Shown one piece after another: positions 258 through 22,696 of a stretch of 64,000 bases of DNA. The notes beneath the pieces are model-generated. The model saw only the letters and a program-made list of their open reading frames with translations. It was not told the origin of the DNA and ran no database searches. The translations under genes and the position numbers were made by a program. Where the stretch lies: the UHGV virus genome UHGV-1497419; one strand, written 5' to 3'. This stretch comes from a virus. Position 1 is the first letter of the stretch. Each line of letters opens with the position of its first letter.

Positions 258-1037
258 TCAGCTTATGAATTTGAACTTTTTAGAGTACAGCAAGTAACAA
301 ACTTCATCCTGATTTGTTGTGTAGATGTATGCTGCTGGATGATTACCAAAGAACACCCCTTCGTATCGCCCAAATGGGTCCACTGAGAACATCTCACTGT
401 CACACATACCCATTTCACCAACCAGAGGGTAACTAATCTCCACCTTACCTTCTGCAAGCTGATAGAGGGTAACTTGATTAGTCTTACCATCACTGAGAAC
501 AACACCATCATAAAATTGTGGTGCTGAGGTAGCATACTTAGGGGTAACTACACTTGCCATCTCTTTATCATAGACGTAAAGGTACACATCAACATTGTGC
601 ATGACACTATTAATGATGCTTTTTACAGCCTCCGCATCTAAACCACCAATACCTGCACCAATCATAGGTAATCCAATTTTACGGATAGAGTTCATCCAGC
701 AAAACTTGCGGAGTTTTTCCAGTGCCTCTACTAAGTATCGGTATGATGCGCACTTCCCAACATCCAACTGTGTGTATAGGTTAAAAATGTAACCGTACTC
801 CGTTCGAGCATGTGACACTTCACCAATCATCTGGTAGCCGATATCATGAGCACTGTAGCCAAATTTCTTATGGAATTTCCGGTCAGCTTCTTCAGCTTTT
901 GGGAAAATCTTAGCAATTTTTTGAGCGATTCCAGCACCCATGAGGTTACGACAGTTGCAACCATGAGCAATTAACTCAATATCTGTGTTTTTGAAGGCAG
1001 ATAGTAAGTTACCTTTCACAACTTTTACAATACCCAT
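258..1037 (-). CDS. macrodomain protein, TARG1/OARD1-like ADP-ribose hydrolase family, with a ~110-aa C-terminal extension of unknown function
   Basis: N-terminal region VKGNLLSA...TDIELIAHGCNCRNLMGAGIAQKIAKIFP and later IGLPMIGAGIGGLDAEAV match the pattern I recall for OARD1/TARG1-type macrodomains; not confirmed by search. Confidence 0.55.
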   Translation of the reverse strand: MGIVKVVKGNLLSAFKNTDIELIAHGCNCRNLMGAGIAQKIAKIFPKAEEADRKFHKKFGYSAHDIGYQMIGEVSHARTEYGYIFNLYTQLDVGKCASYRYLVEALEKLRKFCWMNSIRKIGLPMIGAGIGGLDAEAVKSIINSVMHNVDVYLYVYDKEMASVVTPKYATSAPQFYDGVVLSDGKTNQVTLYQLAEGKVEISYPLVGEMGMCDSEMFSVDPFGRYEGVFFGNHPAAYIYTTNQDEVCYLLYSKKFKFIS

Positions 1038-7991: not shown

Positions 7992-8168
7992 TCACTTATT
8001 AAACATTTTACCAGAACCACCACAAATAGGGCAACAACCTGCTCTTGTATACCCTTCTCCGTTACAGTAGTCACACTTTTTGTGTTCTGCAAAGTACTTA
8101 CAAAGAAGGCAAACAAATATTGCTACACTACCAAGTGACAGTAAAATTTCTATCCAATACGCTTGCAT
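7992..8168 (-). CDS. small membrane protein with two DnaJ-type CxxCxGxG zinc-finger repeats (58 aa; below the ORF-track length cut-off)
   Basis: Hand translation: MQAYWIEILLSLGSVAIFVCLLCKYFAEHKKCDYCNGEGYTRAGCCPICGGSGKMFNK; ATG at 8168, stop at 7992-7994. Confidence 0.3.
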   Translation of the reverse strand: MQAYWIEILLSLGSVAIFVCLLCKYFAEHKKCDYCNGEGYTRAGCCPICGGSGKMFNK

Positions 8169-8485
8169 GACTCACCTCTCATATTCTTGTAAAGGATAAA
8201 GCTTCTGTCATGGACGATACTTGTAGACACTGCAAAGTTACTTTCAAGCATCTGTTTGTTTGGATTGTAGAAGCTTTCTTTAAACTCGTCAAGTGCAAAT
8301 TGGTGATGTTGCGGAAGACCTTTTACACAGACCTTTATTGTGATTGCTGCTGCGACCTTGCCAGTCAGTTCTTCTTGAGCTGCTACCAAGATTTTGTTAA
8401 GGAACTTATGACCATCTTCAGGCTTCTTGATGTTCTCCCAACGTTCTTCTAAGACAATGTTGATGTTCATCTCTTTGATTTTCAT
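8150..8485 (-). CDS. hypothetical protein
   Basis: 111-aa ORF between the NAMPT-like gene and the rIIA-like gene. Confidence 0.35.
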   Translation of the reverse strand: MKIKEMNINIVLEERWENIKKPEDGHKFLNKILVAAQEELTGKVAAAITIKVCVKGLPQHHQFALDEFKESFYNPNKQMLESNFAVSTSIVHDRSFILYKNMRGESCKRIG

Positions 8486-8502
8486 AGTTTTCTCCAGAAA
8501 TT

Positions 8503-8524
8503 AAAAAGGCTCCCGTAGGAGCCT
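8503..8524 (-). terminator. rho-independent terminator (AGGCTCC-cgta-GGAGCCT plus T-run on minus strand)
   Basis: Perfect 7-bp stem and A-run on the plus strand, directly after the NAMPT-like stop. Confidence 0.55.
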
Positions 8525-8538
8525 CTTATCATATACTT

Positions 8539-10320
8539 TTAAAGCTGCTTGTCAATATTATTTCGAATATCCCCAAGAGTTGTGTAACCGAACTGCTCAG
8601 AGTCACTAAAGACTAAACGTAAGGCACAAGCTGGGTGGTCAAGTACATCTGCAAAACTCTGGAATCCATAGCCATCTATAGCTTTCAGCTTGTCACCATC
8701 CCACATAGGTGCTACACCACCAAAGGCAGATTTCTTAACACCACTATCTGTTTTAGGGTCTTTTGCAAGCATAATCTCTTTACCACCAATGCTTGCAAGA
8801 GTTGCTTTGACAGCAAATGCAAAGGTGTCACGAGTCATGTACTGGTAAGTGTAAGAACCTACGCCAAACACTACGTTAGAGCTTGCAAAACCCATTTCAT
8901 ACAGACGCTTCAGGATTTCGTTTGCACGTTCCAGTGTGATAGAGTCACCATAGATAAGGCCGATGTGCTCATCCAGTACCTTAAACCCTTTAGAGTTAAC
9001 AGTTCCCCCAAAGATGTTGTACAGCGTCTTAATAGCTCCATCAATCTCCGCTACAGGACGTGTTACAACGTTTGCAGAACCAACCATATAAGCATTCTTC
9101 AGCAGTACTGTATCAGCAACTTCAAAGTCTTCTCTGTCAACAACCATTTCGTAGCCTTCTGACAGTAGCCATCCAGCAATACCATAGTTAATGTTTTCAA
9201 GCTTCATGTTCAGGACAGAGTTCAGCATTGTATCACTTGCCTCCAGCTTGCTTAGGTGTTCGTAATAAGCCTTCTTAGCACACTCTAAGTGGATTGCTTT
9301 ATAACCTGTGACAATATGTACAGGGTCTCCAGAGTCAGGGCGAATTACCAGTTTACCATCACGTTCCATAATTTCTTTACGGAGTGCTGGTAAGATTTCT
9401 GACACAGTTCTCCAGAAGTTATAAGTATCTGAAACAATGCTTGCAATACCAGTTGGGTAAGTTTCTGTTAAGAAACGACGGAAGGTTTGCAACTCACCTT
9501 TAAAACGTCTTTCTTCTTCAATCAATTCGTTACCGCCTTCCCAAGCAATGTTTGCACACATTACAGAGTGTTCAGTGGCTGGTACAGAGCTACCAATATC
9601 AGAGATTGGGTAAGACTGTCCATAGATTCGTTTAGCCGTATACACAGCAGGGAAGCTATCAGTTCCTTTAAAGCTGGTTAAGTGACCTACAGCGTTAAAT
9701 GCGTCATCAGTAAAGCCGGACATACCACGCATAGCAAAGTCATGGCACTGATAAGGTAAATGTAAGTCGTTGTCGCAAGTAAGGTCAGCCCACTTCTTAC
9801 AGATACGTTTATAATGCAATGCAATAGTTGCAATGGTACAAGCCTTCCAAATCTCAGCAGAGAAAGCATCCTCCAGATACCCCGCTACCCAATGGAAACC
9901 TGAAACAGTGTTCTGGAAGACAATCATTGGGACACGCATAGGGACAACTGTACCTTCTTCTACAGCGTATACTTCAACTGGTAGATAACCTAAGTCGTGA
10001 AGTGCTTCCCAATGCTCTCGACCGATAGCATCTTTACCCAGAACACCATTCATGACTTCTAAGATTTCATCAATGGCTTCTTTTTTATCACGTTCAAAGA
10101 AAGTGGCGTTCCAGTGGTCTATCAAGTAATCTTTAACGAAACGTTGAATACCAAAAGCCACTACACCATCAATTGCTAAGGGGCTGTTAAACCATTTGTC
10201 ACTACGTGGTGTCAGGTTGAACATCAAATACTCTGTTGCACTAGGATACTGGTAAACATGACCAGATTTGTAAGCATCTGCGTTTAAACCTGCTGGTACT
10301 GCATAAAGTGATTTAGTCAT
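8539..10320 (-). CDS. nicotinamide phosphoribosyltransferase family protein (NadV/NAMPT-like; candidate Namat of an NARP1 pathway)
   Basis: Blocks matching human NAMPT from memory: DAYKSGH..QYP, LPVEVYAVEEGTVVP, HDFAMRGMSG...FKGTDS, PATEHSV, SIVSDTYN, VIRPDSGDP, GLIYGDSI. Confidence 0.85.
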   Translation of the reverse strand: MTKSLYAVPAGLNADAYKSGHVYQYPSATEYLMFNLTPRSDKWFNSPLAIDGVVAFGIQRFVKDYLIDHWNATFFERDKKEAIDEILEVMNGVLGKDAIGREHWEALHDLGYLPVEVYAVEEGTVVPMRVPMIVFQNTVSGFHWVAGYLEDAFSAEIWKACTIATIALHYKRICKKWADLTCDNDLHLPYQCHDFAMRGMSGFTDDAFNAVGHLTSFKGTDSFPAVYTAKRIYGQSYPISDIGSSVPATEHSVMCANIAWEGGNELIEEERRFKGELQTFRRFLTETYPTGIASIVSDTYNFWRTVSEILPALRKEIMERDGKLVIRPDSGDPVHIVTGYKAIHLECAKKAYYEHLSKLEASDTMLNSVLNMKLENINYGIAGWLLSEGYEMVVDREDFEVADTVLLKNAYMVGSANVVTRPVAEIDGAIKTLYNIFGGTVNSKGFKVLDEHIGLIYGDSITLERANEILKRLYEMGFASSNVVFGVGSYTYQYMTRDTFAFAVKATLASIGGKEIMLAKDPKTDSGVKKSAFGGVAPMWDGDKLKAIDGYGFQSFADVLDHPACALRLVFSDSEQFGYTTLGDIRNNIDKQL

Positions 10321-10367
10321 CTTTTAATCTCTCTCTCAAAATGGGGCTTTTAAGCCCCTATAAACTT

Positions 10368-11264
10368 TCAATCAAGGTTTGCTACAGTAACTTGACTGTA
10401 ATGTGTTAAGCCACGGTCTTTAGCTTCGCCTAAAGAGTTTGTAGTGTAAATATGGTCGATACCATTGTCAAGAAGGTTTTCAACATCTTTAGAGAAGATA
10501 CCATGTGTTACATAAAGTTCCACACGTTTTGCACCTGCTTCACGAAGATGCTTCGCTGCTTCTATGAAGGTTCGACCACCATCACAGATATCATCCAGAA
10601 TCATGACGGTTTTATCTGTCAAATCAACATCATCAAGGATTCGCATACTAGTAATTTCACCAGTCTTAAGGTTACGCACTTTAGACATTGTGATGTATGG
10701 TTTATCCACCTCTTTAGCAGTCTCTGCAATCTTCTTAGCAGCACCTGCATCTGGGGCTACTAAGTAATCAATCAGTGGGTCATTTGCATAGTGGACTGCA
10801 ATTTCCTTTTGAGGAATACTCTGGAAGCAGTTAAACAGGTTATCTGGTACATAGCTGTGAGGGTCAACTGCACAGACTGCATCAAAACCCATTGCATTAA
10901 CCTGTTGTGCAAACACTTTCAAAGCTGCTGCATCACCTTTAAACATGTGACGGTCGTAACGTGCATTTGGCAAATAGTAAAAGATAGCAGTCTTCATAGC
11001 AAACTTATGAGGTACTAAATCATCAATTGCTTCTTTAGCAAGTGCCACAGCAAACAATGTGTCCTTATCATAACCTTTTACAATCATAATCACATTGTTG
11101 ATAGATGATGCTGCATAAGCAGTAAAATCAACAAACTCTGGCGAAAAGTGTCCACCAATCTCACCAGAAGGGAATTGGACGATGTTAAACTCTTCTTCAT
11201 GAGTCCCTTTAGTTGGTGAATGAACTGTAACACGGATAGATGTTTTCATAGTTTTCTCTCTCAA
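10368..11264 (-). CDS. ribose-phosphate pyrophosphokinase family protein (Prs-like; candidate Adps of an NARP1 pathway)
   Basis: Prs signature blocks LPNARYDR, VDPHS, VAPDAGAAKK and the PRPP-binding loop VMILDDICDGGRTF...AKRVELYVTHGIFS. Confidence 0.8.
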   Translation of the reverse strand: MREKTMKTSIRVTVHSPTKGTHEEEFNIVQFPSGEIGGHFSPEFVDFTAYAASSINNVIMIVKGYDKDTLFAVALAKEAIDDLVPHKFAMKTAIFYYLPNARYDRHMFKGDAAALKVFAQQVNAMGFDAVCAVDPHSYVPDNLFNCFQSIPQKEIAVHYANDPLIDYLVAPDAGAAKKIAETAKEVDKPYITMSKVRNLKTGEITSMRILDDVDLTDKTVMILDDICDGGRTFIEAAKHLREAGAKRVELYVTHGIFSKDVENLLDNGIDHIYTTNSLGEAKDRGLTHYSQVTVANLD

Positions 11265-11539
11265 TCAAAAGTTACGTTTGTTACTGCCATTGCAGATTTG
11301 CATTTTGCAGGGTCTACAACGTGATAAAGTACACTACAGTTACCTGTGCTGTCTGGTACAGGCTTTACCCATTGCTGCTTTATAGTTGGCTCTCCTAAGT
11401 CTTTGTAAGAGCCATCTGTAAAGTTGTTTACCATCTCAAGTGCAATTGGTTCTGGAACATGACCGCGTATCATGTACATCTCACAACCATTACCACATTC
11501 ACTGACTAATGGTAAAATCTCCCACTTCTCTTTAGCCAT
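11261..11539 (-). CDS. hypothetical protein
   Basis: 92-aa ORF; stop overlaps the Prs-like start. Confidence 0.35.
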   Translation of the reverse strand: MAKEKWEILPLVSECGNGCEMYMIRGHVPEPIALEMVNNFTDGSYKDLGEPTIKQQWVKPVPDSTGNCSVLYHVVDPAKCKSAMAVTNVTFD

Positions 11540-12047
11540 TGTAAGTTGCCCTATAAACTGTCTCGAACTTCAACAGGAGAGATATTGCCAAATCTGTATA
11601 GTTGTTGTCAAGCACATCTGGCATATTATTTTTGATATATTTCTCTTGCTCTTCATAGGTCATCTTAGGGATGCTTAGAAGACTATCACCTTGATTCTGA
11701 TTATCAAGTTTAGTCTGGATAAACCAGTTTGCACAGTGATGCTCACCACCCTTTGTAACAGGTTTGTGGTGGCCTAATGTGAAGGATTGACTACCTGTGT
11801 ATCTGCAAAGTTTATTGAGCACTGTAATGGTGTTCTTCACAACAAAACATTCATACAGGTTGTCTATGGTGTAGTATGGGTAATATCGGAATAATGCTCT
11901 TTCACGAGTACTCTCACGATTCCAGAGAATCATGTGATTGGAGTTGGAAGGGTCATATTGGTGGAAGTCAATGAACTCTTGACGTTCCTCAAAGCTGAGC
12001 CTTAACACTGACATTGCAGCCGAACGTTTCAGGTTTGACAGGTACAT
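11532..12047 (-). CDS. hypothetical protein with a possible HNH-like motif
   Basis: GHHKPVTKGGEHHCANW loosely resembles the HNH H-H...GG...N core; weak. Confidence 0.3.
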   Translation of the reverse strand: MYLSNLKRSAAMSVLRLSFEERQEFIDFHQYDPSNSNHMILWNRESTRERALFRYYPYYTIDNLYECFVVKNTITVLNKLCRYTGSQSFTLGHHKPVTKGGEHHCANWFIQTKLDNQNQGDSLLSIPKMTYEEQEKYIKNNMPDVLDNNYTDLAISLLLKFETVYRATYNG

Positions 12048-20902: not shown

Positions 20903-21227
20903 GGTATTTCTCCAAGTTTCTTTTTAGATATAACCAACCATAGTCAGTTCTTTCTACACCCATGAAGAGTGGAGCCATCACAACTTTCCCAAAAGTATTT
21001 CTGTGTAGGCAGATTTCAAAGGAATACTCTTTCTCGATATCAATCCCATATTTGTACAGGACTGCTTTTAAAACTTGTTCATTATCCAGAAGTGTATCTG
21101 GAGTCTCACCATACTTCTCAAGTAACGGGTCATACATAAACACCGTCATAGAGATATTGTAGTTTGAGAAGTGGCTCTTCTGAGCCACACCTTCTTTATT
21201 AATGTTCTGTGAATCCATTATAACCAA
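20895..21227 (-). CDS. hypothetical protein
   Basis: 110-aa ORF. Confidence 0.35.
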   Translation of the reverse strand: MVIMDSQNINKEGVAQKSHFSNYNISMTVFMYDPLLEKYGETPDTLLDNEQVLKAVLYKYGIDIEKEYSFEICLHRNTFGKVVMAPLFMGVERTDYGWLYLKRNLEKYRV

Positions 21228-21954
21228 CCCCTTTTAACCAGCACTTCAGGTTATTAGCATCATAATTCAGTTTCGGGTATGAGGTTACATGGAACTGCTC
21301 ACCATCATAGTAGACAATATCTGCAATCCATAGTCCATTCTCTTTACAGAAATCTTTATCTGCTTTAGAGGTAATTGGATTAACTTCTACAAAACCATCT
21401 ACACCCAAATCCTTTAAGCTACCTACAATACCTTTGCAGATAACACATGTCTCAGATACTACCACAAAAAGTTCTTGGCTTTCAAGCTCTACAATGTATT
21501 CACCAAGCTGTACTTTAGGGAGATTTGATTGCTTCATAATCTTCCCATCGGCTGCACGGACAATCGCATACCACTCTTTACCATCAACCACTGACATTCT
21601 GATGATACACTCTTGACCAGTACGCTTCTCAACATCTGCAAGACGCTTTAAAGCTTCTTCATAGTCATCTGTGTACTTCAGGTCATTATTATGGCAAACA
21701 GCTTTCATAGCACCGTTATGGTCATGTTGTGACAGATAAATCAGACCATCAAGAACATATTGCAAATCTGCCTGAGCATCCAGTGTCTCAATGGGGTCTT
21801 TCTCTTCAATTGCTTTTACAAGCTCTTTTGCTTCTTCAAGCATACACAGAGACTGGGATTTTAAAGATTCCCAATACTCATCACTGTAAGGTTGCTTTTG
21901 AGTGTTTCCACAACGAAGATTCCAGTTTTTTACTGCTTCTCTTGAGTTAAACAT
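21199..21954 (-). CDS. MazG-like nucleotide pyrophosphohydrolase domain protein (N-terminal) with an extra C-terminal domain
   Basis: EEAKELVKAIEEKDPIETLDAQADLQYVLDGL resembles the MazG/HisE EExxE...D helix pair. Confidence 0.4.
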   Translation of the reverse strand: MFNSREAVKNWNLRCGNTQKQPYSDEYWESLKSQSLCMLEEAKELVKAIEEKDPIETLDAQADLQYVLDGLIYLSQHDHNGAMKAVCHNNDLKYTDDYEEALKRLADVEKRTGQECIIRMSVVDGKEWYAIVRAADGKIMKQSNLPKVQLGEYIVELESQELFVVVSETCVICKGIVGSLKDLGVDGFVEVNPITSKADKDFCKENGLWIADIVYYDGEQFHVTSYPKLNYDANNLKCWLKGVGYNGFTEH

Positions 21955-22198: not shown

Positions 22199-22696
22199 TC
22201 AAGCACAATTTGCTTTCATTACCTTATGGATTCTTTTTTCAGCATCTTCATAAGTTTCTTTAGTGATAAACTTAATTGCTGCAATGTTGGCATTGTAGAA
22301 GAGTCTGAGCTTAGAGTCAATCCTTTTTGTCATTACATCGAATTTATGTTGGAGGTTTGCTTCACCATAAACTAGGCCACCTTTCGTGTAGTAGGTTTGG
22401 ATAATGTAAAAGTCAAAAAATTCTTTTCCAAAGCTTTCAATATCTTTTTTAATATACTCAGAAGAGGTTTCGTAAGTCATCCAATCACTCTCCTTAGTGA
22501 CTACCTTCTTCCGAGTCTTCCCAGCAACTTTTCTTTTTGTCACACTGTTAAGCTGTTTCTTTCCGATATAGTATTGTCCAGTCTTCTTACAGTGCACTAA
22601 ATAGACAAAGCCAAAATGTTTAGTGGGGTCAACTTCCCCACATAAAGATACCCAATGACCGTAGGTGGGGCAATTGCCAAATCCTTTAATTTTCAT
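22199..22696 (-). CDS. hypothetical protein with a possible GIY-YIG-like motif
   Basis: FVYLV...GQYYIGKK resembles the GIY-(N9-11)-YIG spacing; weak. Confidence 0.25.
   Translation of the reverse strand: MKIKGFGNCPTYGHWVSLCGEVDPTKHFGFVYLVHCKKTGQYYIGKKQLNSVTKRKVAGKTRKKVVTKESDWMTYETSSEYIKKDIESFGKEFFDFYIIQTYYTKGGLVYGEANLQHKFDVMTKRIDSKLRLFYNANIAAIKFITKETYEDAEKRIHKVMKANCA

Follow-up and report, generated by a model that had tools for sequence, protein, structure and literature searches.

Adjacent adps and namat genes in a Felixounavirus genome very probably encode the NARP1 anti-defense pathway

The window analyzed here is a stretch of 64,000 nucleotides (64 kb) of the virus genome UHGV-1497419, and the Prs-like and NAMPT-like genes that lie side by side in it, adps and namat, very probably constitute a NARP1 anti-defense operon of a Felixounavirus, through which nicotinamide adenine dinucleotide (NAD+) would be rebuilt after its destruction by host defenses. 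An earlier note, made from the sequence of this DNA, had described the pair as a candidate for a recently described pathway; the identification is upheld, but the description as a candidate is not, because the pair is orthologous to the founding example of NARP1 in phage Bas63. The operon is therefore not novel, and NARP1 in this setting is already known, being a published pathway for which this genus supplied the type example. The two genes and the codons of their catalytic residues are located as follows.

8539..10320, minus strand: namat, nicotinamide ADP-ribose transferase (NAMPT-like), 593 amino acids (aa) from an ATG start
10368..11249, minus strand: adps, putative ADP-ribose pyrophosphokinase (Prs-like), 293 aa, ATG start at 11249
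9570..9568, minus strand: codon of the catalytic His251 of Namat
10682..10680, minus strand: codon of the catalytic Lys190 of Adps

The list of open reading frames (ORFs) places the genes next to each other, as the earlier note had said, on the minus strand, with adps upstream and a spacer of 47 nucleotides (nt; 10321-10367) between them. The mechanical ORF for adps (10368..11264) starts with TTG and encodes 298 aa, 5 residues more than the gene listed above; the stop codon of the gene before it (11261-11263) falls within this ORF. Because the Bas63 ortholog is annotated from an ATG matching position 11249 of the window, adps is taken as 10368..11249; the TTG start probably arises from mechanical ORF calling, and the length of 298 aa given earlier, although correct for the ORF, probably does not apply to the gene.

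In a megablast search with positions 8000-12000, 258 phage records were matched; query coverage is ≥80% for 230 of these, mostly with 90-97% nucleotide identity. The matches are FelixO1-like phages named for Escherichia, Salmonella, Shigella, and Citrobacter, many of them at 95-97% nucleotide identity, and the window is therefore assigned to Felixounavirus (Ounavirinae). The reference used for comparison is the record of Bas63 (JohannRWettstein; MZ501086), a Felixounavirus with an 87.1-kb genome. Namat has the same length as Bas63_0080 and is identical to it, without gaps, at 586 of 593 positions (99%), Adps matches Bas63_0079 at 232 of 293 positions (79%), and the gene order NrdG, small ORFs, 77, 78, 79, 80, small ORFs, rIIA is common to the window and Bas63. 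As judged from this conservation and synteny, the pair is orthologous to Bas63 genes 79-80. Both adps and namat are intact genes under purifying selection; the ratio of nonsynonymous to synonymous substitution (dN/dS) relative to Bas63 is between 0.03 and 0.14 across the two. In addition to genus and flanking genes, the locus shares with that of Bas63 the hairpin in the spacer, a Namat of 593 aa, the residues of the selectivity-clamp loop (SCL) and helix (SCH) discussed below, and both insertions in Namat; it differs in that the N-terminal domain of Adps is another allele and in that the gene bas63_0081 is present only in Bas63.

NARP1 was defined through the deletion of genes 79-80 in Felixounavirus Bas63/JohannRWettstein: phage without these genes is about 20-fold sensitive to SIR2-HerA, NAD+ is restored by the wild-type phage, protection continues when the host lacks pncC and nadR, and ADP-ribose pyrophosphate (ADPR-PP; m/z 720.01) is seen solely when wild-type Bas63 and the defense system are both present (bioRxiv 10.1101/2024.02.11.579819). 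A literature search pairing NARP1 with Felixounavirus retrieved no paper, the connection running through the phage name Bas63/JohannRWettstein. In the mechanism proposed for the window, a host defense such as SIR2-HerA, DSR1/2, type I Thoeris, SEFIR, or a similar system would cleave NAD+ into ADP-ribose (ADPR) and nicotinamide. Adps would then move the β,γ-pyrophosphate of ATP onto the 1″ position of ADPR to give ADPR-PP, and Namat would exchange the pyrophosphate of ADPR-PP for nicotinamide to give NAD+, without nicotinamide mononucleotide (NMN) as an intermediate and without an NMN adenylyltransferase (NMNAT). Both enzymatic steps have been measured with the SpbetaL1 and ICP1 enzymes (bioRxiv 10.1101/2024.02.11.579819; PMC13586617), and the anti-defense phenotype is known from deletions in Bas63 and FADO. 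NARP1 is effective against SIR2-HerA, DSR1/2, type I Thoeris, and SEFIR; it does not counter type II Thoeris or aRES, the latter of which yields ADPR-1″-P. By analogy, we infer that the alleles of the window would behave like the NARP1 enzymes of the literature in both activity and rescue.

The structure of SpbetaL1 Namat with NAD+ defines a two-part "selectivity clamp" for the adenine, in which the SCL is a variable loop and the adenine is stacked by an Arg or by the residue following a Lys or Tyr; when Lys occupies the third SCL position it is the next residue that stacks on the adenine, and Bas63 is given as an example (PMC12774641). Both parts of the clamp are found in the Namat of the window.

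10174..10209, minus strand: SCL of Namat, aa 38-49, PRSDKWFNSPLA, with K42-W43, identical to Bas63
8827..8859, minus strand: SCH of Namat, aa 488-498, GSYTYQYMTRD, the published signature of specificity for ADPR-PP

The SCH motif is not matched by the controls, the NadV of H. ducreyi (HdNadV; Protein Data Bank (PDB) 9ke8), which has GAQTYQRNTRD, and the Nampt of Xanthomonas (Xcc), which has GGALLQKVDRD, both of which are without the aromatic residues of the signature. The motif offers a simple test for telling Namat from NadV. The contact residues of SpbetaL1 Namat were mapped onto the window protein by HMMER alignment, after verification of the numbering offset, with all 20 identities in agreement with the paper. 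In this mapping 17 of the 20 residues that contact NAD+ are identical in the two proteins, and at the other three the substitutions are conservative, with K42 (followed by W43) for R40, A196 for S190, and Y490 for F392. The residues of the core are also kept (D15, Y17, F195, R198, D221, A248, H251, R327, D329, G458, D459, G488, S489, T496, R497, and D498) and are mostly invariant among 46 homologs, so that, as read from the alignment, the Nampt-type catalytic core of Namat is intact. The SpbetaL1 and window systems thus have in common the two-gene order, the SCH motif, and most of the NAD+ contacts, but the Namat proteins are 37-39% identical (Foldseek), and R40 stacks the adenine in SpbetaL1, as opposed to K42-W43 in the window.

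The predicted fold is in accord with these assignments. An AlphaFold2 model of Namat, built with 46 homologs, has a mean predicted local distance difference test score of 93.3, and a Foldseek search with it ranks the SpbetaL1 Namat structures 9w5x and 9w5w first (target-normalized TM-score 0.94-0.95), followed by HdNadV and then human and mouse NAMPT; 9w5w and 9w5x are the best PDB matches by sequence as well. Bacterial homologs of 494-497 aa from Klebsiella, Cronobacter, Erwinia, and others, which are annotated as nicotinate phosphoribosyltransferase, also carry a Namat-type SCH (GS[FY]TYQYNTRD), in agreement with the bacterial NARP1 homologs that have been reported (PMC12774641).

For Adps, the relevant structures are those of the ICP1 enzyme, solved with ADPR and ATP, in which K185 is catalytic, the acceptor and core residues are R87, H121, D161, D212, D213, and D216, the PP loop extends from C215 to S220, and F221 and F223 form an adenine lid (PMC13586617). 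In an alignment of the Adps proteins of the window, Bas63, ICP1, and FADO with E. coli Prs, R87, H121, D161, and K185 of ICP1 correspond to R97, H131, D167, and K190 of the window protein, and D212, D213, C215, D216, and F221 correspond to D219, D220, C222, D223, and F228; the SpbetaL1 counterpart of the catalytic Lys is K162. The window and ICP1 proteins thus share a PRPS-like fold family, the catalytic Lys, the DD acceptor pair, the Cys-Asp of the PP loop, and the Phe lid. They are only 31% identical, however (the window protein has 24% identity with E. coli Prs), and two residues of ICP1, F18 and F92, are represented by H17 and M102. The residue patterns of both proteins, which the earlier note had put forward as a test, side with Namat and Adps and not with NadV and Prs.

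Routine annotation carries a different implication, which is that of classical salvage: the Prs-like protein would make phosphoribosyl pyrophosphate (PRPP), the NAMPT-like protein would make NMN from it, and host NadR or PncC would complete the synthesis of NAD+. The labels in Pfam, PHROG, and NCBIfam all agree with this alternative. Namat matches Pfam NAPRTase (3e-35; NAMPT_N falls just under the cut-off) and PHROG 448, "nicotinamide phosphoribosyl transferase" (3e-202), and passes the NCBIfam equivalog NF006629, "nicotinate phosphoribosyltransferase" (469 versus a cut-off of 405), and its match to Namat in the PDB is at 2e-128. Adps matches Pfam Pribosyltran and Pribosyl_synth, PHROG 619, "ribose-phosphate pyrophosphokinase" (8e-98), and Prs in the PDB (2e-19), and passes a single NCBIfam model, the broad subfamily TIGR01251 (ribP_PPkin; 128.7 versus 113). 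These family assignments are well beyond chance. Pfam, PHROGs, and NCBIfam contain no model specific for NARP, however, and none for Adps or Namat was matched; the scans cannot separate Adps and Namat from Prs and NadV, and the labels that these libraries give are misleading. A further point in favor of salvage is that Namat has in vitro about one-half of the NMN-forming activity of human Nampt (PMC12774641).

Several observations, however, render classical salvage extremely improbable as the function of the pair. The Bas63 orthologs, with 99 and 79% identity to Namat and Adps, protect without the host pncC and nadR and give rise to ADPR-PP in vivo, the adenine clamp is present in Namat, and SpbetaL1 Adps reportedly has no Prs activity (bioRxiv 10.1101/2024.02.11.579819). 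The Adps of the window scores 45-107 bits against NCBIfam Prs models at the equivalog and subfamily level that have cut-offs of 296-536 bits; being 190-480 bits short of every equivalog cut-off, it does not score as a canonical Prs. It should also be noted that no gene for the adenylyltransferase of an NMN route was found in the window: a Pfam scan of 26 window ORFs (92-788 aa) gave no match to PF01467 (cytidylyltransferase family), a six-frame scan of the window found neither an HxGH nor an ISSTxxR signature, and the annotation of the whole 87.1-kb genome of Bas63 lists no such gene, as expected from the statement in the earlier note that no NMNAT was nearby. NARP2, which consists of Nampt and Nmnat without Adps, does not describe the locus either, as Adps is present and no NMNAT was found in the window. 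The NARP2 or NadV-NatV system of Vibrio phage KVP40 and the cellular Nampt and NadV enzymes resemble Namat in the NAMPT fold, the phospho-His, the Arg and Asp contacts to ribose, and the Phe or Tyr that stacks on nicotinamide; the window differs from them in having the adenine clamp and a Prs-like partner, with no NMNAT partner found. The orthology to Bas63, the synteny, and the residues of both proteins therefore support the preference expressed earlier for NARP1 over salvage by Prs and NadV.

The assignment to NARP1 has to be weighed against a number of considerations. The scans for NMNAT cover the 64-kb window, beyond which the phage genome extends by about 23 kb. In vitro, Namat enzymes still convert some PRPP to NMN (PMC12774641), and given this activity there may be some classical salvage flux alongside NARP1. 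For this exact phage the evidence consists of gene presence, orthology and synteny with the validated Bas63 operon, conserved residues, and purifying selection, and the in vitro work on Adps was conducted with the purified SpbetaL1 and ICP1 enzymes rather than with that of Bas63. The recognition of adenine by Adps cannot, on the present alignment, be transferred from the ICP1 structure, because F18 and F92, which contact the adenine of ADPR in ICP1, are replaced by H17 and M102 in both Felixounavirus alleles. Finally, 21% of the Adps sequence is divergent from the Bas63 allele used in the experiments, and the divergence rises to 35-40% within the first ~80 residues.

The last of these points relates to a second alternative, in which the system is NARP1 but the divergent N-terminal domain of Adps alters its behavior (oligomerization, regulation, or acceptor range) or leaves it weaker than the Bas63 allele. 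A sharp mosaic boundary is seen in the 5′ third of adps, where the nucleotide sequence is only 58-68% identical to Bas63 (11270-10971) between flanks of 95-99% (97-99% in the upstream gene and 95-98% in namat), and amino acid identity over the first 80 residues is 60-65%. Such a pattern fits a mosaic gene with an anciently diverged N-terminal allele brought in by recombination. Over aa 1-135, dN/dS relative to Bas63 is 0.065 with saturated synonymous sites (pS 0.74), which indicates an old allele under purifying selection, and positive selection on the domain is rejected. In addition, every catalytic and binding position that was mapped is the same in the two alleles, and the allele of the window is the commoner among phage records (119 at ≥95% identity). 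An altered or weakened Adps is accordingly considered very unlikely.

The Namat of the window is longer than that of SpbetaL1 (593 versus 491 aa), and the earlier statement that it exceeds a typical NadV by ~100 aa is correct as to length. The extra length is real but does not represent a departure from NARP1, as the Bas63 Namat also has 593 aa. It is distributed over three places, with 4 residues in the SCL (the β1-β2 loop), about 15 at aa 258-276, and 84 at aa 344-427, the two larger insertions being absent from the SpbetaL1 protein.

9040..9291, minus strand: inserted α/β subdomain of Namat, 84 aa (aa 344-427), specific to the Ounavirinae lineage
9493..9549, minus strand: second, smaller insertion in Namat, at about aa 258-276, where SpbetaL1 Namat is gapped when aligned

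The 84-residue subdomain follows directly after the RPDSGDP strand and is confidently folded in the predicted model, but without a recognizable fold relative. Over 48 Namat homologs the length at this site varies between 14 and 99 aa, and that at the smaller site between 8 and 43 aa. A tblastn search with the 84-aa insert alone matched only Namat genes, in 254 phage records, nearly all of them bearing the name Felixounavirus or that of a phage of Escherichia, Salmonella, Shigella, or Citrobacter; its existence as a mobile or stand-alone domain is thus ruled out in the phage collection. The insert may have a regulatory or anti-inhibitor role in the Namat of Ounavirinae, an idea that is weaker than that of the split NARP1-AP system considered below.

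The short hairpin noted earlier between the two genes is present, having a 6-bp stem of GC-rich sequence within the 47-nt spacer, and other structures and genes adjoin the operon.

10343..10358 (to 10337 with AUUUUG), minus strand: intergenic stem-loop GGGGCU-UAAA-AGCCCC, followed by AUUUUG, a 6-bp GC stem between adps and namat
8504..8527, minus strand: candidate terminator-like hairpin with a 10-bp stem and a T-run, 12 nt past the namat stop, from a consensus scan only
11261-11539, minus strand: small gene, 92 aa, PHROG 4726
11532-12047, minus strand: small gene, 171 aa, PHROG 3500

The 61-nt fold of the spacer has a free energy of −13.4 kcal/mol (z = −2.7), and the stem is kept in Bas63, with one change in the loop. 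The scan for terminator consensus did not call this hairpin, the T-run being too short. Promoter-like matches occur at only about 1.7 times the shuffled expectation, and one of them is upstream of a terminator-like hairpin, so that they do not define a transcription unit. The spacer is "empty" apart from the hairpin in the window and Bas63. In Salmonella phage Si3 a free-standing HNH endonuclease gene of 492 nt lies between adps and namat (L012 2097-2588); an extra ~470 bp breaks the match to the window in this phage and in a number of others of the genus. A 345-nt gene, bas63_0081, follows namat in Bas63 and is lacking in the window (~8486-8538; alignment gap of ~350 nt). The two small genes upstream of adps are tightly packed, overlapping each other by 8 nt and ending 11 nt short of adps, and are 91-99% identical to Bas63_0077/0078, with only faint hints of HNH and DUF7167. 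Macro/Adpp and RyR/RyDEP genes were sought among the immediate neighbors (11261-11539, 11532-12047, and 8150-8485), and none were found.

A Macro-domain gene is nevertheless encoded elsewhere in the window.

258-1037, minus strand: Macro-domain protein, Poa1p/TARG1-like, 259 aa (Pfam PF01661, 3e-7)

The adps, Macro, and namat genes are adjacent in the NARP1-AP system of Vibrio phage Gary, in the order Adps - Macro-domain phosphatase Adpp - Namat, where Adpp is an ADPR-1″-P phosphatase that turns NARP1 into NARP1-AP (bioRxiv 10.64898/2026.01.28.702374). The window has the same core enzymes and encodes a Poa1p-like Macro protein, but the gene for the latter, its sole Macro protein, lies outside the operon, ~7.5 kb and ~14 ORFs downstream, well beyond the distance of two genes from adps or namat that was used as the criterion for NARP1-AP. 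The protein is 28% identical to Gary Adpp (pairwise E 6e-13) and matches the Macro gene that adjoins the Prs-like gene in Vibrio phage Pylo, as well as PDB entries of TARG1/OARD1 and yeast Poa1p. It is the counterpart of Bas63_0095, "putative phosphatase," to which it is only 41% identical; the allele of the window is rare (13 phage records at >90% identity), and most Felixounaviruses, including Bas63 with Bas63_0095, have the ~41%-identical version at the same position. The aRES study scanned two genes on either side of NARP1, and its supplementary tables have no entry for "Felix," "JohannRWettstein," or "Escherichia phage" (bioRxiv 10.64898/2026.01.28.702374). A distal Adpp-like gene would escape such a survey because only two flanking genes per side were scanned.

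It is conceivable, though rather unlikely, that the Macro protein is an unlinked ADPR-1″-phosphate phosphatase feeding ADPR to NARP1. If so, Felixounaviruses would have a "split" NARP1-AP able to resist NAD+ phosphorolysis of the RES type (aRES). Against such a link, the Macro family is very widespread, with 2855 phage records that include T4, T2, and T6, and the best NCBIfam match of the protein is a weak one to a DarG-type glycohydrolase. T4, T2, and T6 are not known to have NARP1. The protein could alternatively be an ADP-ribosyl hydrolase of the DarG/TARG1 type.

The practical value of the assignment lies in annotation, as the libraries still name the pair "ribose-phosphate pyrophosphokinase" and "nicotinate/nicotinamide phosphoribosyltransferase." On this basis, an unlabeled, broad-spectrum counter-defense against NAD+ depletion by SIR2, TIR, and SEFIR systems would be present in about 250 FelixO1-like genomes, including those of several phages used for biocontrol or typing. 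The distal Adpp-like Macro gene, the mosaic N-terminal domain of Adps, and the orphan insert in Namat are small extensions of the NARP1 story. Two other genes of the window are unrelated to NARP1: one for a 251-aa protein with a MazG/PRA-PH-like pyrophosphohydrolase domain (21199-21954, minus strand) and one for a SegE-type GIY-YIG homing endonuclease (22199-22696, minus strand).

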